A stretch of DNA of 64,000 nucleotides from Candidatus Woesebacteria bacterium. GTDB taxonomy: Bacteria; Patescibacteriota; Microgenomatia; UBA8517. A program made the position numbers and the translations under genes. The stretch spans positions 724,582 to 788,581 of the forward strand of contig CP058602.1 in assembly GCA_013426185.1 (NCBI GenBank), read 5' to 3'. Positions 9,420-60,155 of this stretch are shown in pieces (the stretch's first letter is position 1; the number at the start of each line of letters is the position of its first letter). The notes beneath the pieces were generated by a model that saw only the letters and a list, made by a program, of their open reading frames with translations, made no database searches and had not been told where the DNA came from.

Positions 9420-9705
9420 TTGCGGGGCTGGGGATCGAACCCAGTCTGGAAGATTATGCCTAAAGTTTTCTCCGATTTCTCGAGAGTGTCGGACTATGTC
9501 TTGCCCGTGAGATAAGAAATCTATCTCAAGGGCTTTGGCGTATAGTCTCTACGGATTTTACATTCATGTAAACCGAACGTAATCTTTCCTCGGCGTTGCC
9601 ATGATCAAATAGATTTTAGGTTTCGCCGATATAGCCAAATTTTTCCCCCATTAAATCGAGGGAAGCCCATTTTGAGCCTTCCGTGCAGCCGTACACTACC
9701 CCGCA
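9420..9705 (-). tRNA. tRNA(CAU) (elongator Met or Ile2/lysidine type) interrupted between U33 and C34 by a group I intron
   Basis: 5' exon TGCGGGGTAGTGTACGGCTGCACGGAAGGCT (9705-9675) and 3' exon CATAATCTTCCAGACTGGGTTCGATCCCCAGCCCCGCA (9458-9421) join to a 69-nt cloverleaf with loop CUCAUAA; acceptor TGCGGGG/CCCCGCA. Confidence 0.75.
9459..9674 (-). ncRNA. group I intron (IC3-like, Azoarcus tRNA-Ile intron-like core) inside tRNA(CAU)
   Basis: 5' exon ends in U, intron ends in G (..ACUUUAGG). An internal guide sequence (GGGCUUCC) pairs with the exon end (GGAAGGCU). Core blocks AUCGGCGAAACCUAA, AUGGCAACGCCGAG and CCGUAGAGACUAUACG resemble the Azoarcus/cyanobacterial tRNA introns as I recall them from memory. 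Confidence 0.7.
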
Positions 9706-9800
9706 TGTTAACTATAAAGAACATGCGCATTATACATGGAATTTGGTAGTTAAGCAACCCCCAATGCGTACCAGTATATATAGTATAATATAACTTAAGG

Positions 9801-17418: not shown

Positions 17419-17782
17419 TCGGAAGCCAGTATTTAGTATTTTGTATTATGCAGAGAATACAGGTAGAAAGTAGAATGTAGTAAGTAGAAAGCAAATAAAT
17501 AGTTAAAAGTTCAAAGTGCAAAGTTAAAAGAATTCGGATTTCAGCTGTCAGCCGTCAGCTATCAGATTTGAGCGCTATCTAATTCATAAATCTTAAATCC
17601 TAAATCTAGATTCTATGACTTATTTGTAATTTGGAATTTGCCTGCCCGCAATCGCTAAAGCGATAGCTTTTGCAGGCGGGGAATTTGTAATTTTATTCTA
17701 TAATCCAAAATCTATAATCTAGTGTTTTGTGGTAAATTTCAGGTTAAGGAGGTAAAATAGGGGAAAATAAGCAAAACCTTAG
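17419..17782. repeat. mosaic modular intergenic repeat region (left flank of R-M island)
   Basis: modules gtagaaagtagaatgtagtaagtagaaagcaaataaatagttaaaagttcaaagtgcaaag, gaattcggatttcagctgtcagccgtcagc, ggaatttgcctgcccgcaat..gcaggcgggg (also inside 23S at about 56420-56465). Confidence 0.8.
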
Positions 17783-19633
17783 TTGGCAAAAAAAATGAGC
17801 GACAACAATAACCAAGTTGCTGTAGATAAAACAGAGCTTGTCTGGCCCGGGAAGCGTAGGGAAGTTGAGCGAGTGGAGCTTCCGTTTCAGACGATTGAAA
17901 CTATTAATCTTCCGCGTGGTAGGCGACAAGAATCTATCTTTGAAGCAATCCAAAAACAGCAATCTTTGATTTCTCAACCAGAACAACAAATTCTTAGATC
18001 AGAGGAAGGAGAATGGAAAAATCGACTTATTTGGGGTGACAATCTCTTGGTAATGGGTTCGCTTATTAAAGAATTTGCCGGGAAAATTAATCTCATCTAC
18101 ATTGACCCGCCATTTGCGACCGGCGATGATTTTTCCTTTACCGTAAACATCGGCGACCAAGCGGAAATTACCAAAGAGCCGTCCGCGCTGGAAGTAAAAG
18201 CATATCGCGACACGTGGGGCAAAGGCATGCAATCATACCTTCAAATGATGTATGACCGCCTTGTTTTAATGAAAGAGCTTTTGGCAGATAATGGTTCAAT
18301 TTATGTGCATCTGGATTGGCATGTGGGGCATTATGTAAAAATTTTGATGGATGAAATTTTTGGGAGAGATAATTTTAGGAATGAGATTGTTTGGCGTTAT
18401 GGAAAAATGGCAGCTTCATCTAAAAAGTTTTTGTCGAATCATGATGTAATACTTTTCTATACAAAGAGCTATAATTTCACTTTCAATCAGCAATTTATAG
18501 CGTTGGATAAGCCAATTAAAAGATTGGCTAGGACGGTGCGTGATGGGAAACTCGTAAATGTTAAAGATGAAAAAGGTAATTTAGTATATGTCGAAAAGAG
18601 TGACAGAATAGTTGACGATGTCTGGGATGATATTTCTACGGTTATGCATGCCAGCCCTCAATTTCTTAATTTTCCAACACAAAAACCACAGCTACTACTA
18701 GAGCGAATAATCAAAACTTCAAGTAATGAAGGCGATTTAGTAGCTGATTTTTTCTGCGGCTCCGGTACTACTGGAGTTGTAGCAGAAAAACTTGGCAGGC
18801 GGTGGATTATGTGCGATTTGGGGCGATTTGCCATCCACACTACTCGCAAGCGGCTTTTGGATATGGGAGCAAAGCCGTTTGTGGTGCAAAATCTTGGCAA
18901 ATACGAGCGCCACCGCTGGGTGCAACTTAATGGCAGATACAAAGATTACATCAAGTTTATTTTGGAGCTTTATCATGCTGAACCAGTAGAAGGATTTACA
19001 AATTTACATGGCAAAAAAGGAAGTAGTTTTGTTCGCGTGGGAAGTGTTGATGCGCCGGTAACCCTTTCTGAAATCCGTGAAGCCTTGGAAGAATGTAAAG
19101 AAAATAACATCAGAAAATTAGATGTGCTTGGTTGGGAATGGGAAATGGGTTTACATGATTTGGTAAAAGAGGAAGCAGAAAAATATGGGGTAAAACTTGT
19201 GACCCTGCAAATACCGCGAGAGGTTATGGATATTTCTCCGGCGGAAGCAAAAAAACACGACATTCAATTTTTTGAACTTGCTTATTTAGAAGTTGAGCCA
19301 AAAGTTGAAGGTAGGCACGTAACAATTACACTCAAAGATTTTATCATCCCTAATCCTGAATTATTGCCAGAAGAAATAAAAGGCAAGGTAAAAAGTTGGA
19401 GCGATTTTATTGATTATTGGGCAGTGGACTGGATGTTTAATCAGCATGAGGAAGTGACCGAAGAAGATGATACTTTCCATAATATGAACCAGCACTACCG
19501 CACCCGCAAAGAGCCGAAACTGGAACTTTCAATGGGTTACGAATACAAGAATGCCGGAAAATACAATGTGTTAGTAAAAGTAATAGATATATTTGGAAAT
19601 GACACCACCAAGCTTATACAAATTAAAGTTTAG
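17783..19633 (+). CDS. mod: Type III-like restriction-modification Mod subunit (beta-class N6-adenine DNA methyltransferase)
   Basis: motif IV IYIDPPF precedes motif I FCGSGTTGVVAEKLGRRWIMCD (IV-before-I order). Confidence 0.7.
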   Translation: MAKKMSDNNNQVAVDKTELVWPGKRREVERVELPFQTIETINLPRGRRQESIFEAIQKQQSLISQPEQQILRSEEGEWKNRLIWGDNLLVMGSLIKEFAGKINLIYIDPPFATGDDFSFTVNIGDQAEITKEPSALEVKAYRDTWGKGMQSYLQMMYDRLVLMKELLADNGSIYVHLDWHVGHYVKILMDEIFGRDNFRNEIVWRYGKMAASSKKFLSNHDVILFYTKSYNFTFNQQFIALDKPIKRLARTVRDGKLVNVKDEKGNLVYVEKSDRIVDDVWDDISTVMHASPQFLNFPTQKPQLLLERIIKTSSNEGDLVADFFCGSGTTGVVAEKLGRRWIMCDLGRFAIHTTRKRLLDMGAKPFVVQNLGKYERHRWVQLNGRYKDYIKFILELYHAEPVEGFTNLHGKKGSSFVRVGSVDAPVTLSEIREALEECKENNIRKLDVLGWEWEMGLHDLVKEEAEKYGVKLVTLQIPREVMDISPAEAKKHDIQFFELAYLEVEPKVEGRHVTITLKDFIIPNPELLPEEIKGKVKSWSDFIDYWAVDWMFNQHEEVTEEDDTFHNMNQHYRTRKEPKLELSMGYEYKNAGKYNVLVKVIDIFGNDTTKLIQIKV

Positions 19634-19733
19634 TCAAAGTCATTGCCTGCCCCGTAGTCAGCTTTGCTGTACTACTGGGGATATCTTTGGCAATGACACG
19701 ACGAAATTAATTGAAGTTAAGGTTAAATAATCT

Positions 19734-22508
19734 ATGTCAGACACGACAACAAAACCATATAGAGGTTCGGAGTGGAAGAAGTGGGATTTACAAATCCACA
19801 CTTATCTCGATCCTAACTGGAAGTGGCCTTCTGGATACCCAAATGGGAACGATCGACAGCAAGAGCGTATTGCCAAGTTTGAGAACGACTTTATACGGCA
19901 TTGCATTGAAAATCGAATTGAAGGCGTAGCCATAACCGACCACAATGCTGGCGACGCTATAGATGGCTTATTGGTAAAAAATAGAGAACTTGGAAACAAA
20001 GTCACTATCTTGCCCGGGGTAGAAGTTGCAAGCGACGGAGGTACACACCTACTTATAATTTTTGACCCTTCATCTTTTATTAGAAAAAATCGTTGGAATA
20101 CATGGCGAGAAACAGTAGACCATTTCTTAACCGCAATTTTTACAGACAACCCCCGATTTGAGGAACAGAACGGAAGAAATACTCCACTCAATCCTGCTTC
20201 ATCTATTGACCAAATTATCAAGAAAGCAAAAGAGTATTCTGCGATTGTGATTTTTCCTCATGTTTTTTCGCAAGGAACAGGTTTGTTTAGTTGTGACTCA
20301 CGAACTCGCAAAAGGGTTTTGAAAACCTGCAATATTCTGGATATCGCTTGTGTGCAAAGAGACATACAAAAGAAAACAGATGAAGCGAACCGAAAACTTA
20401 CCGGACAAGGTTTCGATTCTAATGATTTTGCTTTTATAAACACTTCTGACTCCCGCAGAATTGAGGATGTCGGTTCAAAGTTCACTTGGATAAAAGCAGA
20501 TGCTACTTTTGAGGGACTGCGACAAATTATCCACGAACCAAAGACACGTGTCAGTATACAAGAAAATCCTCCTTTGTATTTACACCCGCAAATTATTTCT
20601 GCAAAGTTACTCAATGCAAGTAGTTATCAATCCAAGAAAAGCGATTTTCCACCGATTACGCTAACCAAGGAAATATTTTTTAGTCCAAACTTAACTACAA
20701 TTATTGGCCCGAGAGCGGCTGGAAAAACTGTTTTAGTTGAGCTTATCGGTTATGTAGCGAATAGGTTTTCAACGGATAAAAGAGACAAGAAACTCCCATT
20801 GGTGGAATTTTTAAGTAAAGAGTTTTCTGACATTGAAATAGAGGTAACTTTTCAGAGTGGCGCCGAAGAAGTTACCACACTGAAACGTCCGGTGAAGGAA
20901 TGGAACGACCCTTTTTACACTTCGCCTTTCAAAATTGAGTATTGGGCGCAGGGCGAAATCGAGAGAATAGCAAATAGTTCTAATCAAATATCTGATTATA
21001 TTGAGCAAAATTGGCTTAATTCTGATTTCCTCACCAAAACAAAAAGGGAAATAGAAACTTTGCAGAAAGAGATGAAATCTTTGAGAGGTAACTACTCTAA
21101 CAAACTACAAATAGAGATTGAGAAGAAAAAACTTGAAGCCGAGCGTAAACAAATTGAGGCGTACTTCAACAAATTGAAGGCAGAAGAATACAAGCAGATT
21201 ACTGGAAAGATAAAGGAGAACAGGGTAAAGCGTCAGATGATTGAGGGCTTAGTTCAGGACATTAAGAACCAAGCTGCCCTTCTTAAAAATCTTGCGGTAC
21301 AGGTTAGGTTTTTCAGCACGGTTGATAAAGACAAGGTTTTGGAGCTTTTTAGTGCACGGGATCCGTTGAGAAAAAAGATTGAAGGATTTTATCAACTTAA
21401 GGAAACACAACTGGATGCCATCGTTACTGATTTGGAAACGACAGCGAAAGCAATTGAGGACTCGGATGTTAAAAAATCACTTGATAAAGAAAACACGGAA
21501 CTTATCAAGCAGTTTACTGATTACTGTAAAACTAACGGCATTATGATTAGTAAGGGAGAGGTAGAAAAGCGAAATGATAGGATTAAATTCATTGACCAGC
21601 AAGTATCCAAACTAGAAAGCCAACTCCAAAAATTTGAAGGTGATCAAAAACGACACGGGCAACTTGCTGCTGAATTGAGCACAAAACTAAAACTCTGGGA
21701 AAAAGAAAATAATAAACTCATCAATGGATTCAACAGACAATTTGGGAACACGCAAATTTCCGCCTTTTGGAATAATCCAGCGAGTGAGATTGCTGGCTGG
21801 ATAAAAGCGCAATTTCTAGATTCAAACTCGAATCTGAAAGGATTAATTGAAAAAAACTTTAAGACAAAATCACCGGTGCGAGAAGATTATCTTGCGGATA
21901 TCATAGATGAATTGGTTGATAAGTATGGTGATAAAGCGCGAGAAGAAATTGCTTCTATTCTTAAACAAAACAAAGCGCCAAAACTACAAGATAGTAGTGG
22001 AAAAACGGAAACTATACGCTGGTTTTTTGAAGATGAGAATACAAAGCCTATTCGGGAAGATATTATTATGAGGCTAAATGAGTATGCTGAAACGGGCAAC
22101 AATTATATCAAATACGGAAATAAGGTGCTCGGCAAGGACAGTATGTCTTTTGGTGAACGGTGTGGGACACTTGTTGAACTTATACTGCTGTCCGGCGACC
22201 ATCCATTAATTATTGACCAGCCAGAAGATCACTTGGACGCAAAATTCGTGGCGGAAAGAGTCGTTACTTTAATTCGGGAACAGAAGCCTAATAGACAAAT
22301 TATTATCTGTACGCACAATGCAAATATAGTCGTATTGGGTGATTCGGAATTAGTAACTGCGTTAGCGGTAAGTAGTCGAGACAAAGTAAGTATCGAACAA
22401 GGTTCTCTGGAAAATATCCAGATGAAAAAAACAATTTTTGATGTTTTGGAAGGTGGCGAAAGTGCCTTTAAGAAACGTGAGCAAAAATATGGCGAAGCAA
22501 TCAGCTAA
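19734..22508 (+). CDS. PHP-family phosphoesterase fused to coiled-coil ABC/SMC-like (OLD/AAA15-type) ATPase; Ppl-like defence protein
   Basis: N-terminal His-rich PHP blocks (IHTYLDP, AITDHN, THLLIIFD, FPHVFS), Walker A GPRAAGKT, long coiled coil, C-terminal Walker B/D-loop LIIDQPEDHLD and ICTHNAN. Confidence 0.55.
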   Translation: MSDTTTKPYRGSEWKKWDLQIHTYLDPNWKWPSGYPNGNDRQQERIAKFENDFIRHCIENRIEGVAITDHNAGDAIDGLLVKNRELGNKVTILPGVEVASDGGTHLLIIFDPSSFIRKNRWNTWRETVDHFLTAIFTDNPRFEEQNGRNTPLNPASSIDQIIKKAKEYSAIVIFPHVFSQGTGLFSCDSRTRKRVLKTCNILDIACVQRDIQKKTDEANRKLTGQGFDSNDFAFINTSDSRRIEDVGSKFTWIKADATFEGLRQIIHEPKTRVSIQENPPLYLHPQIISAKLLNASSYQSKKSDFPPITLTKEIFFSPNLTTIIGPRAAGKTVLVELIGYVANRFSTDKRDKKLPLVEFLSKEFSDIEIEVTFQSGAEEVTTLKRPVKEWNDPFYTSPFKIEYWAQGEIERIANSSNQISDYIEQNWLNSDFLTKTKREIETLQKEMKSLRGNYSNKLQIEIEKKKLEAERKQIEAYFNKLKAEEYKQITGKIKENRVKRQMIEGLVQDIKNQAALLKNLAVQVRFFSTVDKDKVLELFSARDPLRKKIEGFYQLKETQLDAIVTDLETTAKAIEDSDVKKSLDKENTELIKQFTDYCKTNGIMISKGEVEKRNDRIKFIDQQVSKLESQLQKFEGDQKRHGQLAAELSTKLKLWEKENNKLINGFNRQFGNTQISAFWNNPASEIAGWIKAQFLDSNSNLKGLIEKNFKTKSPVREDYLADIIDELVDKYGDKAREEIASILKQNKAPKLQDSSGKTETIRWFFEDENTKPIREDIIMRLNEYAETGNNYIKYGNKVLGKDSMSFGERCGTLVELILLSGDHPLIIDQPEDHLDAKFVAERVVTLIREQKPNRQIIICTHNANIVVLGDSELVTALAVSSRDKVSIEQGSLENIQMKKTIFDVLEGGESAFKKREQKYGEAIS

Positions 22509-24981
22509 ACAACAATCGGCATTGCCTCTTGTCCGCGCGTTGCAGCCGGTGGTGGCGGCGTGGCGCGAGGGTGGATACAAAGAAGGCACGAGTGAGACAA
22601 CTCGGCGGCTTTTGGAGTGGTGGTTTTGGGAAGACCACGAATTTGCCGACGGAAAACCTTTTGCTTTTTGGCAAGCGCAAAGAAAAGCGATTGAAAATTT
22701 GATTTATTGCTACGAAGTTTTAGAAACGCGCAGTTTGTATCAGTTAGCGCAACGGCTTGATGCAAGGATCCCAGTTGATCCCAGTTCAGATAAATGGGCA
22801 AAATACGCTTTCAAAATGGCAACAGGTTCAGGCAAAACAATGGTGATGGCAATGGCAATTGTTTGGTCATATTTTAATGCGATAAAAGAAAAGCGAGACG
22901 ATTTTACAAAAAATTTTGTGCTTATTGCGCCAAACTTAATTGTGCTTGATCGTTTAATGGGTGATTCAAAAAATCCAGAATTTTTTGAAGGTGGGATTTT
23001 TAAGAAATTTCCTTTTATTCCACCAGAATGGTCATCAGATTTTCAGCTTGATGTCATCGGGCCTGACGAGGAGCGGGAAAGCACTAAACCTGCGACACTT
23101 TATCTTTTAAACTGGCAAAAATTTGTTGAGCGAGAAAACGGTGAAACAGAAAATCCAGTGCAGGATATTTTGGGCCCAAAACCGCCGAGCGAAATTGCTG
23201 TTTCTTTGGCAAAACTCAAAGACAGATTGTCTCGTCTTTCAAATGTGATGGTAATAAATGATGAAGCGCATCGCGTTTGGAGTGAAGAGCTGGTTTGGTA
23301 CAAAGCGATTGAAAATATGTACAATACTGCAGGTCTTATGTGCCAACTTGATTTTTCGGCAACACCAAAAGACCAACAAGGAAATTTATTTACTCATATT
23401 ATTACTGATTATGATTTGGGAAGTGCAATTGAAGATAATATTGTCAAGCGCCCCAAAATCGCCGAGCTTGAAAACGTGCCAGAAATTGAAAGTAAAAAAG
23501 CATCTGAAAAATATCGTGTTCAAATTGATGCAGGTATTAAGCAGTGGAAAATAATGAGAAAAGCGCTTGCTCCAACAGGCAAAAAGCCGGTAATATTTTT
23601 TGTTACAGAAGATAATAAAGCCGCTGATGAAGTTGCTGAATATCTGCAGACGTTTCCTGAATTTAGCGGAGACAAAACTTTAACTATTCATTCCAGTAGA
23701 GCAAAAGATCAGATTGCTGAAAAAGATTTAGCAAAAGCCCGAAAAGCGGCTCGTGAGATTGACTTGCCAAATAATCCTCATAATGCAATTGTTTCAGTTT
23801 TGATGCTTCGTGAGGGTTGGGATGTAAAAAATGTAGTTGTGGTTGTGCCTTTGCGGTCTTTTAGCGCTAAAGCAAAAATTTTTCCAGAGCAGACACTTGG
23901 TAGAGGTTTGCGCAAAATGTGGCCGGAGCAAAAAGATTTAATAGAGGAATTAATTGTTATAGAGCATCCCGAGTTCCATAATTTAATTGAGCAGGCTCTT
24001 GCTGAACAAGGAGTAAAAATTGAATTTACAAAAATTGATGAAGCATATACACCACCAATTATCATTCAAGTTGAAAAGGGTAAGGAAAAGTTTGATATAG
24101 AAGTGCCAATGCTTTCCGGCGGACTGACACATTCTGTAAAAGGAATTGAGAAATTACAAGCAAGTGCTTTAGAAAAGGGTTTATTTGATTACGACTCTTT
24201 GCAGGCGCGAGATGTTGTGATGCGTAAGGTGGATATGCTCACAAAGAAAGAGGAGGGAAAAGAAATATTAGAATTTCCCTATGCTGATAATCCCCAGATT
24301 TATATTGCAAGTATTGCTAATGCAGTTTTGCGGTTTGCGCGAATACCAGGACATTTTGATAAAATTGCCCCAATTGTTAAGGAATACATTGAAAAATATC
24401 TTTTTGAGAGAGAAGTTAATGTTGAAAGTCTTGAGACATTAAAAAAACTTAATCATCCAAAAGTACGCAGCGCAATAGTTTCTGTTCTTGTCGATGCCAT
24501 AAACAATTTGACAGTAGTCTCAGAAGAGATGAAGCTTGAAAATCGAAGGTCGTGTGCATCAGAAATTAAACCTTTTCCGTGGACAAAAGTTGCTGTAGTA
24601 GCGCAAAAGTGCATATTGAATTTTGTACCAGTTGATAATGATTTTGAAGCGAAGTTTGTGAGATTTCTTGATGGAGCAAATGATGTTGATGCTTTTATTA
24701 AGAACGAAACACGAACAATCAATCTTAAGATTCCGTATATTGCCAAGGACGGATTTTTGCGTCGCTACATTCCCGATTTTATCGTTAAAACGAAAAATGC
24801 AACAGCAATTGTAGAAACAAAGGGACGTGAGGACGTTGACGTGGCGGCGAAGGATTTGCAAGGTAAAAGATGGTGTGAGGAGCTTGGCAAGCGAACTGGA
24901 ACAAGATGGATGTTCTTGCGCATTGACCAAAAGGAATTTGAAAAAGCGAGGTATAACAAGTTTGCAGAATTGATAATCTGA
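22489..24981 (+). CDS. res: Type III-like restriction enzyme Res subunit (SF2 helicase + PD-(D/E)xK nuclease)
   Basis: Helicase motif I (TGSGKT), DEAH box (VINDEAHR) and motif III (SATP), plus a C-terminal nuclease block (IPDF...VETKG). The start was chosen at ATG 22489 (MAKQSAKQQ), overlapping the upstream stop by 20 nt; the longer ORF from 22438 was not used. Confidence 0.7.
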   Translation: MAKQSAKQQSALPLVRALQPVVAAWREGGYKEGTSETTRRLLEWWFWEDHEFADGKPFAFWQAQRKAIENLIYCYEVLETRSLYQLAQRLDARIPVDPSSDKWAKYAFKMATGSGKTMVMAMAIVWSYFNAIKEKRDDFTKNFVLIAPNLIVLDRLMGDSKNPEFFEGGIFKKFPFIPPEWSSDFQLDVIGPDEERESTKPATLYLLNWQKFVERENGETENPVQDILGPKPPSEIAVSLAKLKDRLSRLSNVMVINDEAHRVWSEELVWYKAIENMYNTAGLMCQLDFSATPKDQQGNLFTHIITDYDLGSAIEDNIVKRPKIAELENVPEIESKKASEKYRVQIDAGIKQWKIMRKALAPTGKKPVIFFVTEDNKAADEVAEYLQTFPEFSGDKTLTIHSSRAKDQIAEKDLAKARKAAREIDLPNNPHNAIVSVLMLREGWDVKNVVVVVPLRSFSAKAKIFPEQTLGRGLRKMWPEQKDLIEELIVIEHPEFHNLIEQALAEQGVKIEFTKIDEAYTPPIIIQVEKGKEKFDIEVPMLSGGLTHSVKGIEKLQASALEKGLFDYDSLQARDVVMRKVDMLTKKEEGKEILEFPYADNPQIYIASIANAVLRFARIPGHFDKIAPIVKEYIEKYLFEREVNVESLETLKKLNHPKVRSAIVSVLVDAINNLTVVSEEMKLENRRSCASEIKPFPWTKVAVVAQKCILNFVPVDNDFEAKFVRFLDGANDVDAFIKNETRTINLKIPYIAKDGFLRRYIPDFIVKTKNATAIVETKGREDVDVAAKDLQGKRWCEELGKRTGTRWMFLRIDQKEFEKARYNKFAELII

Positions 24982-55823: not shown

Positions 55824-55920
55824 CAGGCTCTTTGAAAAGTGAAGAGAATTTTGTCCTATCGCTTTCGTCAAATTAATTTTGGCGGGTAAAGCGAAAGAGA
55901 AAATGGGAAGGCCGTAAAAA

Positions 55921-60055
<4,135 letters not shown>

Positions 60056-60155
60056 TTTTTCCTTTCCTATTTTTCTCTTTCGCTTTGCCAATGGCAAAAT
60101 TCTTTTCACTTTCTCAAGCTTTAGCTTGAGAGTTTAAATTTTAGGTTTGGGCCTT

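Follow-up and report, generated by a model that had tools for sequence, protein, structure and literature searches.

A duplicated mod 3′ end split by a small palindrome at the mod–X junction of Type III restriction–modification operons in CPR bacteria

The junction between mod and the following gene, X, in a Type III restriction–modification (R-M) operon of a Candidatus Woesebacteria bacterium is probably a C-terminal-displacement or duplication scar combined with a palindromic insert. Comparison of related loci suggests that this junction has been spread by recombination and uncouples mod from X. The operon lies within a 64,000-nt stretch of DNA (the window, abbreviated WIN) and was compared with loci encoding a related Mod, which carry L-numbers (L001, L087, etc.). 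It comprises three genes:

17795..19633, forward strand: mod, Type III DNA methyltransferase, 612 aa from the ATG at 17795 (Pfam N6_N4_Mtase, PF01555, 7e-47)
19734..22508, forward strand: middle gene X, TrlF-family PHP/AAA-like ATPase, 924 aa (NCBIfam NF045780)
22489..24981, forward strand: res, Type III restriction subunit, 830 aa, gene call in L001 (Pfam ResIII, 6e-16; PADLOC REase_III, 1.7e-22)

An N6/N4 methyltransferase (Mod) and a ResIII helicase-type ATPase (Res), separated in the window by a single gene, identify the operon as Type III R-M. Mod residues 5–609 align to positions 12–615 of the 616 positions of PADLOC MTase_III (PDLC03633) with 420 bits, and two Logan contigs encode exactly the Mod protein of the window. 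Heptamer repeats upstream of mod had at first pointed to a cyanobacterial origin; this was discarded, as a Candidatus Woesebacteria genome has an identical Mod annotated. X had been called ppl in a first-pass annotation of this DNA, a name that the family models do not bear out: it scores 444 bits against the TrlF model NF045780 (cut-off 350), whereas it reaches 175 bits against Ppl (cut-off 1000) and 119 bits against the PADLOC Ppl model. The start of res lies within the end of X, giving an overlap of 20 nt. The gene neighborhood examined consists of a glycosyltransferase, mod, TrlF, res, and Fpg, and no integrase was found among these neighboring genes.

The mod–X junction itself is composed of four elements:

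19574..19633, forward strand: copy 1, the working last 19 mod codons VKVIDIFGNDTTKLIQIKV plus TAG, with the codon set that we term A-type
19634..19645, forward strand: copy 2 part a, dead (V)KVI codons TCAAAGTCATTG, from tail comparison across loci
19646..19680, forward strand: 35-nt GC-rich palindromic insert CCTGCCCCGTAGTCAGCTTTGCTGTACTACTGGGG, the excision of which restores an intact tail in five loci
19680..19730, forward strand: copy 2 part b, dead DIFGNDTTKLIEVKVK plus TAA, from repeat search and tail alignment

The 3′ end of mod is thus present twice, as the first-pass annotation had recognized, with copy 1 starting at 19586, 2 nt upstream of the start given there. The core of copy 1, DIFGNDTTKLIQIKV, spans 19586–19630 and is followed by the TAG stop at 19631–19633. 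The core of copy 2, DIFGNDTTKLIEVKVK, spans 19680–19727 and is followed by TAA (19728–19730), TCT, and the ATG of X at 19734, so that the copy 2 stop ends 3 nt before the ATPase start. Together, the cores form a direct repeat of 45 nt with 76% identity and a 94-nt offset, the second-longest direct repeat in the 6-kb region, and 13 of their 15 residues are identical. The duplication is longer than originally noted: what had been described as a 46-nt spacer between the copies consists of 12 nt of dead tail and the 35-nt palindromic insert. Excising 35 nt (19646–19680; the boundary is ambiguous by one G) rebuilds (V)KVIDIFGNDTTKLIEVKVK followed by a stop, and copy 2 without the palindrome is a complete second set of the last 19 mod codons plus stop, in which the G of the mod TAG can be used as the first base of GTC (V) in part a. 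Copy 2 was said to be in frame with its own stop; this holds for copy 2 itself but not relative to mod, where it lies in the +1 frame. The same junction sequence occurs in two Logan assemblies and one JGI contig and is therefore no assembly artefact.

The two copies differ at 14 of 57 nt, distributed as 3, 0, and 11 over codon positions 1, 2, and 3, with two conservative residue changes. None of 100,000 random-mutation simulations was as biased toward synonymous change (P < 1e-5). The Mod tail is the best-conserved part of the protein; VKVIDIFGNDTTK is nearly invariant in 120 homologues, and intact Mods end exactly in ...LIEVKVK. The synonymous bias supports the derivation of copy 2 from a different, once-functional mod allele, and the earlier reading of the remnant as the tail of a second, diverged allele agrees with the third-position-biased divergence. 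The proposed match to the 3′ end of another Mod allele was likewise found. In L091, L095, and L101, an uninterrupted mod ending in ...VKVK is followed by TAATCT ATG and an ATPase homologue; part b of the window is 87% identical to these intact tails, and its TAA TCT ATG junction is identical to theirs. By its sequence, copy 2 is the native tail of a mod allele that normally abuts TrlF-type ATPase genes. The same relation is seen at other loci. Compared with the empty locus L090, the filled locus L087 shows 89% identity upstream, 94% identity downstream, and a 94-nt insertion, and tail 2 and X of L087 match L090 at 94%. Analogously, L107 matches tail 2 and X of L003. Overall, dead tails are 87–89% identical to the tail type that accompanies their own X gene in empty loci.

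As a coding sequence, copy 2 appears not to be protected, given its +1 frame and K-to-N changes at otherwise invariant residues in the dead tails of L228 and L087. Part a reads TAAAGGTTATTG in L092 and AGGTTATTG in L099, with differences at third codon positions only, and TCAATGTCATTG in L228, where K is changed to N. Some constraint on the dead copy is nevertheless possible, because few damaging changes are found there. A cis-acting role of intact tails at the nucleotide level, by which coding and cis functions would be divided between the two copies, found no support: third-position diversity is ordinary in 42 distinct empty tails, among which only ATT GAT ATT TTC is somewhat low.

Comparison across loci supports the view that the position between mod and res is a derived, variable slot. 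In 37 of 38 close (CPR) loci, 0.6–2.9 kb separate mod and res, while res directly follows mod in 87 of 93 distant loci and in the Kazan-group locus L015/L115, which provide the related mod–res loci without a middle gene that had been predicted. The slot holds at least ten unrelated families of defence-type genes, including TrlF, OLD, UvrD, SIR2, TIR, ThsB-TIR, Schlafen/AlbA_2, and DUF3800. The suggestion that the ATPase gene was inserted into a mod–res unit is therefore borne out as far as the variable slot is concerned, but the ATPase was not inserted alone; since L091, L095, and L101 carry the tail natively joined to the ATPase, a new mod end was added before it. In the undisturbed CPR loci listed (about 40), the mod stop overlaps the X start or lies 3–10 nt from it.

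The junction is no one-off scar but is shared by five sequence-distinct lineages, in which other middle genes are also found. Its order is constant: an A-type working tail with stop, the VKVI remnant, the hairpin, and the dead tail. Five distinct module sequences were found (WIN/L001/L002/L083/L003; L087/L224; L228; L092; L099/L227), accompanied by six middle genes (TrlF, an OLD-type ATPase, UvrD, AAA_21, and two unknown). All module loci are CPR Type III R-M systems, with several mod specificity (target recognition domain, TRD) blocks. Copy 1 and copy 2 are offset by 94 or 91 nt, a 3n+1 value in every case, and the sole indel is 3 nt. Neither a duplication without hairpin nor a hairpin within an intact tail was found among the loci compared. 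Searching with the C-terminal 119 aa added a new module (L228) and an empty locus (L229), the matches being for the most part short fragments. In L003, tail 2 is WIN-like for 26 nt and then L107-like, and this mosaic therefore indicates recombination within the dead tail.

The A-type tail, GTA AAA GTA ATA GAT ATA TTT GGA ... CTT, is common to WIN, L228, L092, and L099, and its codon set was seen only in module-bearing loci. It is present in no empty-site tail compared, L010 being closest, and no locus among those compared carries it without the module. The signature begins at the first duplicated codon, and 5′ of it every filled mod is 91–100% identical to some empty locus. Taken together, the sequence comparisons largely show that the ~106-nt module is inherited as a unit and passes among CPR mod–X–res operons by homologous recombination in conserved flanks.

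The hairpin between the copies, which the first-pass annotation had also seen, interrupts the dead copy where its I codon meets its D codon. Its stem is formed by 19650–19662 pairing with 19666–19680 (13 bp) around a TTT loop, with T19670 and T19676 bulged. The predicted fold has −17.1 kcal/mol as RNA and −10.1 kcal/mol as DNA, and the 67-nt region around it gives a folding z of −6.1. Two hairpin forms exist, and all eight differences between them fall into four compensatory pairs of the 13, with 98% of cells paired. Both bulged T are kept in both forms, as are the base and loop sequences. Each form is internally invariant (0 differences over 34 nt), against a divergence of 10–15% in the flanks (P = 0.003 and 0.03). 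The compensatory pairs, the kept bulges, and the identity within forms suggest that the hairpin may be under selection. Because only two forms are known, the covariation counts as a single set of events; the forms may represent two subfamilies of the element instead of in-place co-evolution, and conservation could serve the element itself, not the host.

With regard to an intrinsic (Rho-independent) terminator, the stem is strong (−17 to −21 kcal/mol), but the tail after it is only moderately U-rich (AUAUCUUU or AUAUUUUC, 5 U in 8). Scanning for the terminator consensus gave no call at the hairpin, in L092 as in the window, possibly owing to the bulges, and a promoter consensus scan gave nothing at the module in either sequence. 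Rfam 15 returned no match over 19600–19740, at E up to 10 or at gathering scores. An outer 9-bp stem (GTCATTGCC with GGCAATGAC) was rejected as part of a larger structure, as covariation is absent and its pairing is weaker in L092 and L099; it is a by-product, because the V-I codons are the reverse complement of the N-D codons. In viral contigs, the long hairpin pattern gave 0 matches and no Mod relative was found. The 61 15-mer matches there were discarded, all being ordinary coding sequence and none a hairpin; the reverse complement encodes YGAGK, which is P-loop-like.

Elsewhere, there are related palindromes, likewise GC-rich, that have (TTG)CCTGCCC(C)G in common; copy numbers refer to the 64-kb window and the compared loci. 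In the window, GCCTGCCC...GGGG occurs three times versus 0.03 expected, and relatives are located at 17640–17681 and 56422–56460, the latter within the 23S rRNA span. Further relatives lie in frame inside mod of L099, L105, and L227, and another inside an ORF of L106. In L086, L099, and L105, hairpin relatives add 7–11 residues to a loop of Mod. Two sites can be compared with an empty counterpart, and in both of them TTG precedes the insert. A strict TTG target was rejected: seven of nine distinct members fit, while L099 5500 and L116 −2284 fail.

To account for this anatomy, we propose that a displacement or duplication placed a complete mod end with its stop directly before the VKVI codons of the resident tail. 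The event may have been of the C-terminal-displacement type; as a second option, 59 nt may have been duplicated in tandem, with later recombination refreshing the distal copy. A small palindrome would also have been inserted. During exchange of middle genes, the dead tail appears to act as the left homology arm. The mod stop now lies 100 nt from the next start, with a stable stem-loop in between, and the stop/start translational coupling of undisturbed loci would thereby be abolished. By analogy with REP-like intercistronic hairpins, expression of X and Res is probably lowered or insulated relative to Mod. A more far-reaching version, which we regard as unlikely, sees the module as a selected adaptor: the dead tail would be retained because it offers portable homology, and the hairpin because it insulates, allowing defence cassettes to enter the mod–res slot of CPR Type III systems without touching, or being translationally coupled to, the essential mod end. 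The hairpin would then belong to an undescribed mobile CPR palindrome family of 31–35 nt that inserts after TTG, including in frame in proteins and in 23S rRNA.

Of the other explanations, a neutral scar carrying a selfish, REP- or RPE-like mobile palindrome shares the same anatomy and history but assigns no host function and explains persistence by linkage; we consider it possible, though doubtful. It would fit the relatives in the window, in mod, and in the L106 ORF, the TTG preceding both comparable insertions, and the two discrete, internally identical hairpin forms. Two family members lack the TTG flank, however, and although a functionless 106-nt module could persist across six or more middle-gene contexts, this would demand tight linkage; uncoupling of mod and X would result in either case, selected or not. 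Could the scar instead be a plain tandem duplication of the mod end in place, followed by drift and involving no second allele? The clean 59-nt unit, from VKVI to the second base of the stop, coincides with the A-type block as such an event would predict. Yet a drifting non-coding copy should gain mostly non-synonymous changes, while 11 of 14 are at third positions (P < 1e-5), and copy 2 is 87–89% identical to the tail type of its own X gene in empty loci. Third-position bias and tail-type matches rule out pure duplication with drift, and this explanation has a negligible chance of being correct; tandem duplication is viable only if intact tails later replaced copy 2 through recombination.

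Two readings that assign copy 2 or the hairpin a dedicated activity are both very improbable. Were the hairpin and conserved tail an attC-like or recombinase-recognized docking site for middle-gene cassettes, the imperfect palindrome with its two conserved bulged bases, conserved base, and conserved loop would be expected, as would its position exactly at the left edge of the slot of variable content. Against such a site, each locus has one hairpin and none at the X–res boundary, about 40 loci exchange cassettes without it, no RYYYAAC/GTTRRRY-type core is visible, no integrase is encoded among the neighboring genes examined, and the L003 crossover lies inside the dead tail, as expected of ordinary homologous recombination. 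Similarly, translation of copy 2 could use a 43-codon +1-frame ORF (19599–19730), whose ATG lies inside the N-D codons of copy 1, and restore termination–reinitiation coupling to X, or could proceed by frameshift or bypass from copy 1. In four of five lineages (WIN, L228, L092, L099), no stop interrupts the +1 frame between this ATG and the end of copy 2, the offset is always 3n+1 with a 3-nt indel as the only length change, and copy 2 retains a clean coding look. This frame is shared by descent, though, and about 27 open codons arise by chance with a probability of roughly 0.15–0.2; moreover, TGA closes the ORF in L087/L224, no Shine-Dalgarno-like sequence precedes the ATG at a usable distance, the hairpin would have to be read through, and the K-to-N changes in L087 and L228 speak against constraint at the protein level.

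The favored displacement or duplication scar resembles what is known from Rhs, CdiA, and T6SS effector loci, where C-terminal displacement leaves "orphan" modules (PMC3150448; PMC5361080). In both cases, a full gene is followed by the displaced 3′ fragment of an older allele, which keeps a piece of the conserved region, stays with its own downstream partner, and may act as a homology arm. Accordingly, a 3′-homologous fragment, a different functional allele as its source, and linkage to the cognate downstream gene are all present here. A polymorphic toxin tip with an immunity partner is absent: the fragment comprises 19 codons of the best-conserved part of the protein, and the linked gene is a defence-type enzyme (TrlF ATPase). 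Unlike in those loci, the fragment is split by a palindrome and the junction is common to many loci.

The slot recalls the "minimal mobile elements" of Neisseria, in which cassettes are exchanged between conserved flanks, and prrC inside the Type IC EcoprrI locus, an accessory defence gene within an R-M locus (PMC12707154). A variable gene sits between conserved R-M genes in each case, and slot content differs by genome. The present slot differs in lying between mod and res of a CPR Type III operon, with stop/start overlaps, and in being filled by at least ten families that are unrelated.

Intercistronic REP hairpins, such as that of malE–malF, stabilize upstream mRNA and set relative expression within an operon. 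REP families are marked at one end by a conserved tag, GTAG or CGTC (PMC3733652). The present insert resembles them as a 35-nt imperfect GC-rich palindrome between two cistrons (within the 20–40 nt typical of REPs), with a structure kept by compensatory change and related copies elsewhere in the genome. It differs in having no end tag common to both forms, GTAG lying inside the stem in form 1 and form 2 (CCCCGCACCGAGC) having neither tag, and in that relatives of the window hairpin also occur in coding regions and the 23S rRNA span. Rickettsia palindromic elements measure 100–150 nt and can sit in frame inside protein-coding genes. These elements, mentioned in PMC1779305, are matched by the hairpin relatives in frame inside Mod, but the palindromes here measure 31–35 nt and the window copy, of 35 nt, is out of frame in a dead fragment. 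With integron attC sites, the hairpin shares an imperfect palindrome, extrahelical bases, and a location 3′ of an ORF beside exchangeable genes; in contrast to attC, no core sites, array, or integrase were seen, each locus has one site, and most cassette loci lack it.

The finding shows how gene ends are rebuilt during the shuffling of defence genes. The 19-codon pseudo-tail records the mod allele that each middle gene once followed, so that the movement of cassettes can be traced by it. The hot slot between mod and res of CPR Type III systems, together with the tiny GC-rich palindrome family, whose members appear inside genes, between genes, and within the 23S rRNA span, may merit more attention than the scar itself. 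If the module does tune the Mod:Res ratio, it would represent a simple, transferable regulatory device for the restriction systems of uncultured organisms.

The 3′ end of mod, the methyltransferase gene of the mod-X-res operon, occurs twice in the window, once as the working end of the gene (copy 1, its last 19 codons) and once ahead of the variable middle gene X (copy 2, the dead tail or tail 2). The translations agree for both copies.

17795 (ATG) to 19631-19633 (TAG), + strand: mod, followed by 100 nt before the next gene
19586-19633, + strand: copy 1, the mod end DIFGNDTTKLIQIKV*
19680-19730, + strand: copy 2, DIFGNDTTKLIEVKVK*
From 19734, + strand: middle gene X, 924 aa

A direct-repeat search aligns the copies over 45 nt at 76% identity with an offset of 94 nt. 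The repeat reported by the first-pass annotation is present, with two of its ends 1-2 nt off, while copy 2, described there as in frame, is so only with itself, its frame being +1 to that of mod. Two Logan assemblies (L001, L002) and the JGI contig L083 carry the identical sequence, ruling out an assembly artefact.

Comparison of the related loci L087 and L090 shows that the apparent spacer opens with 12 nt (TCAAAGTCATTG) that correspond to the (V)KVI codons ahead of DIF in mod. Excising 35 nt (CCTGCCCC...CTGGGG, 19646-19680) restores an intact tail (V)KVIDIFGNDTTKLIEVKVK*, and the same type of excision restores the tail in L003, L087, L092, and L099. The hairpin noted between the copies is real but is a 35-nt insert within copy 2, the rest of the spacer being 12 nt of tail. 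The VKVI remnant reads (A)TA AAG GTT ATT G in L092 and L099 versus GTC AAA GTC ATT G in the window, differing at third codon positions only. Copy 2 was proposed to be the 3′ tail of another mod allele, which agrees with the mostly third-position divergence, although the tail is longer than was thought: the full 57 nt of the window copies show 14 mismatches, of which 3, 0, and 11 fall at first, second, and third codon positions, and two residues are changed conservatively. Because none of 100,000 simulated runs of random mutation reached this bias, we infer that both copies diverged while coding.

Matches to Pfam N6_N4_Mtase and, over the full length, to PADLOC MTase_III (420 bits) identify Mod as a Type III methyltransferase, and a protein identical to it is annotated in a Candidatus Woesebacteria genome. 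The third gene encodes a ResIII-type Type III restriction subunit. X exceeds the NCBIfam cut-off for TrlF-family PHP/AAA-like ATPases (444 versus 350 bits), a name taken from a Photorhabdus locus (10.1101/2020.06.02.129163), and stays below that for Ppl (175 versus 1000 bits). The Mod C-terminal VKVIDIFGNDTTK is almost invariant from candidate phyla radiation (CPR) bacteria through Legionella and Actinobacteria, with numerous homologues, some terminating exactly in ...LIEVKVK. Some fragments homologous to the C-terminal ~120 aa (window 19274-19633) carry precomputed PKD matches (PF18911, PF00801), and on this evidence the conserved tail probably forms the final strands of a PKD-like β-sandwich. 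Upstream of mod, the window has a repeat-rich 376-nt gap with three and a half heptamer repeats (cagctgt cagccgt cagctat cag, 17536-17560) instead of the small gene of the HTH_3 family, similar to a controller (C) protein, that directly precedes mod in L225 (70-336) and L226 (21-230).

Among the 160 related loci fetched, the mod stop and res start are 0.6-2.9 kb apart in 37 of the 38 CPR-like loci with both gene ends. The search for mod-res loci lacking a middle gene found res within 300 nt of mod in 87 of 93 distant relatives, and mod and res share a TAATG overlap in a Kazan-group locus (L015/L115). In undisturbed CPR loci (~40 listed), X begins in an ATGA overlap with the mod stop or 3-10 nt after it. 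The slot contents surveyed (L003-L012, L083-L119) are unrelated, comprising OLD-type ATPase (OLD/AAA_15), UvrD helicase, AAA_21 ATPase, SIR2_2, SEFIR/TIR, ThsB-TIR, Schlafen AlbA_2 with HATPase_c_4, DUF3800, TrlF, a PDC-M48B/metallo-β-lactamase-like protein, and proteins without family. The genes in this CPR slot are defence-type.

The dead tail can be traced to such loci. In L091, L095, and L101, an uninterrupted mod ends ...VKVK* TAATCT ATG and runs into an ATPase homologue; this junction is that of window copy 2, whose closest nucleotide matches are these very tails (87%). The proposal that the middle gene was inserted by itself is contradicted by this native junction. Likewise, L090 is the empty-site counterpart of L087, with 89% identity up to the mod stop, 94% from tail 2 on, and 94 nt extra in L087, and L107 matches tail 2 and X of L003. 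Judged from these alignments, each dead tail belongs to its own X gene. In L003, tail 2 starts with 26 window-like nt and is L107-like thereafter, marking a crossover inside the dead tail that went along with X replacement. Copy 2 lies out of the mod frame, and in L087 and L228 otherwise invariant K residues have changed to N; these changes point to a pseudo-sequence whose clean look would reflect a recent coding past or recombination refreshment. Of five lineages, four have an open +1-frame ORF (ATG 19599 to 19730), which is closed in L087; it has no usable ribosome-binding site, and translation of copy 2 appears unlikely.

The module, consisting of the working tail with its stop, the VKVI remnant, the hairpin, and the dead tail, recurs in five sequence-distinct lineages, across which six X genes and several mod bodies are represented.

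Lineage 1: window, L001, L002, L083, L003
Lineage 2: L087, L224
Lineage 3: L228
Lineage 4: L092
Lineage 5: L099, L227

Between the window and L083, a mod block (~18376-18666), probably the target recognition domain, is swapped; elsewhere in mod and across the module and ATPase gene, the two are 98.5% identical. L224 and L087 have the module in common, yet their Mods measure 652 and 602 aa. Copy 1 of module loci uses a codon set (A-type; GTA AAA GTA ATA GAY ATM TTT GGA AAT GAC ACY ACY AAR CTT) shared by no empty-site tail compared; that of L087 is a hybrid. The signature starts at the first duplicated codon, and upstream of it every filled mod has an empty locus that it matches at 91-100% identity, likely because exchange with ordinary alleles can easily overwrite all of mod except the duplicated block. 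L010 (5729-5795) is the sole empty locus with a tail resembling this set (36/42 positions); its stop is followed by CCAAAGTTATG, like the VKVI remnant, running straight into the X start, and it may be a hairpin-less module derivative or a chance resemblance.

A stem of 13 base pairs, with two bulged T in its 3′ arm and capped by a TTT loop, makes up the hairpin; its fold energies are −17 to −21 kcal/mol (RNA) and −10 to −13 kcal/mol (DNA). All eight differences between its two known forms constitute four compensatory pairs with both bulges retained, and 98% of hairpin cells pair versus 32-55% in slid controls. Hairpins of the same form show no differences, against 10-15% divergence in their flanks (P = 0.003 for window versus L228; P = 0.03 for L092 versus L099); L087 has three changes, two leaving a G-T (G-U) wobble pair. 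An outer 9-bp helix was rejected as structure, being a by-product of V-I/N-D codons that are mutual reverse complements, with covariation absent. An Rfam search of the hairpin gave no matching family, and consensus terminator scans did not call it. Related palindromes starting (TTG)CCTGCCC(C)G occur elsewhere in the window, in Mod of other loci, near L108 and L111, and inside an ORF in L106.

Window 17640-17681 and 56422-56460: related palindromes within ~60-nt repeat copies 17625-17690 and 56405-56470
L099 4286-4316 (−), L105 2474-2504 (−), L227 3888-3918 (−): in-frame palindrome in a Mod loop; same site in L086
L099 5500 (+), L116 2284 (−), L106 1480-1522 (−): same-family palindromes in coding sequence, in frame

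The repeat pair (TTTGTRATTTGGAATTTGCCTGCCCGCAAT...GCAGGCGGG) forms a GC-rich hairpin sharing TTGCCTGCCC and a AGCTTTGC-like centre with the mod-X hairpin, and GCCTGCCC-N(15-45)-GGGG occurs three times in the window versus 0.03 expected. The in-frame coding palindromes are GC-rich and 31-33 nt long. The Mod-loop insert of L099, L105, and L227 is 33 nt net (31-nt palindrome plus 2 nt), one adding PASAKATDGQ(AS); in 97 of 101 homologues it is absent and the loop has 25-26 residues. Insertion follows TTG at both sites with an empty comparator (CATTG^AT, GCTTG^GT). Repeat copy 56405-56470 lies inside the 23S rRNA span (55916-60062), whose 4147 nt versus the 2925-nt model therefore include ~1.2 kb of insertions. 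A group I intron matches at 9469-9726 (−) (Rfam, 60 bits versus gathering score 50).

Two routes to the module fit these data. A complete mod end may have been illegitimately joined to the VKVI codons of a resident tail, displacing its C-terminus; alternatively, a 59-nt tandem duplication may have arisen, its distal copy later being overwritten by intact tails at cassette exchange. Pure tandem duplication with drift is rejected by the third-position-biased differences and the match of copy 2 to intact tails of ATPase loci. The palindrome could have inserted before or after duplication or displacement; no intermediates were found among the fetched loci.

Among known processes, the nearest is C-terminal displacement, which leaves orphan modules in Rhs, CdiA, and T6SS effector loci (PMC3150448, PMC5361080), but the toxin/immunity feature defining these is not shared by the mod module. 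In context, accessory genes lying within restriction-modification loci, such as prrC (PMC12707154), come closest, and the closest element type is REP (PMC3733652), although the mod-X hairpin differs in its lack of the REP end-tag feature. A purely selfish palindrome is a strong alternative to weigh against a role of the hairpin in expression. In the module, the mod stop and the X start stand 100 nt apart with a stable stem-loop in the gap, an arrangement that would abolish the stop/start coupling typical of empty loci. Judged from only five module sequences and two hairpin forms, the module most likely acts as an intercistronic REP-like hairpin that would favour Mod over X and Res.
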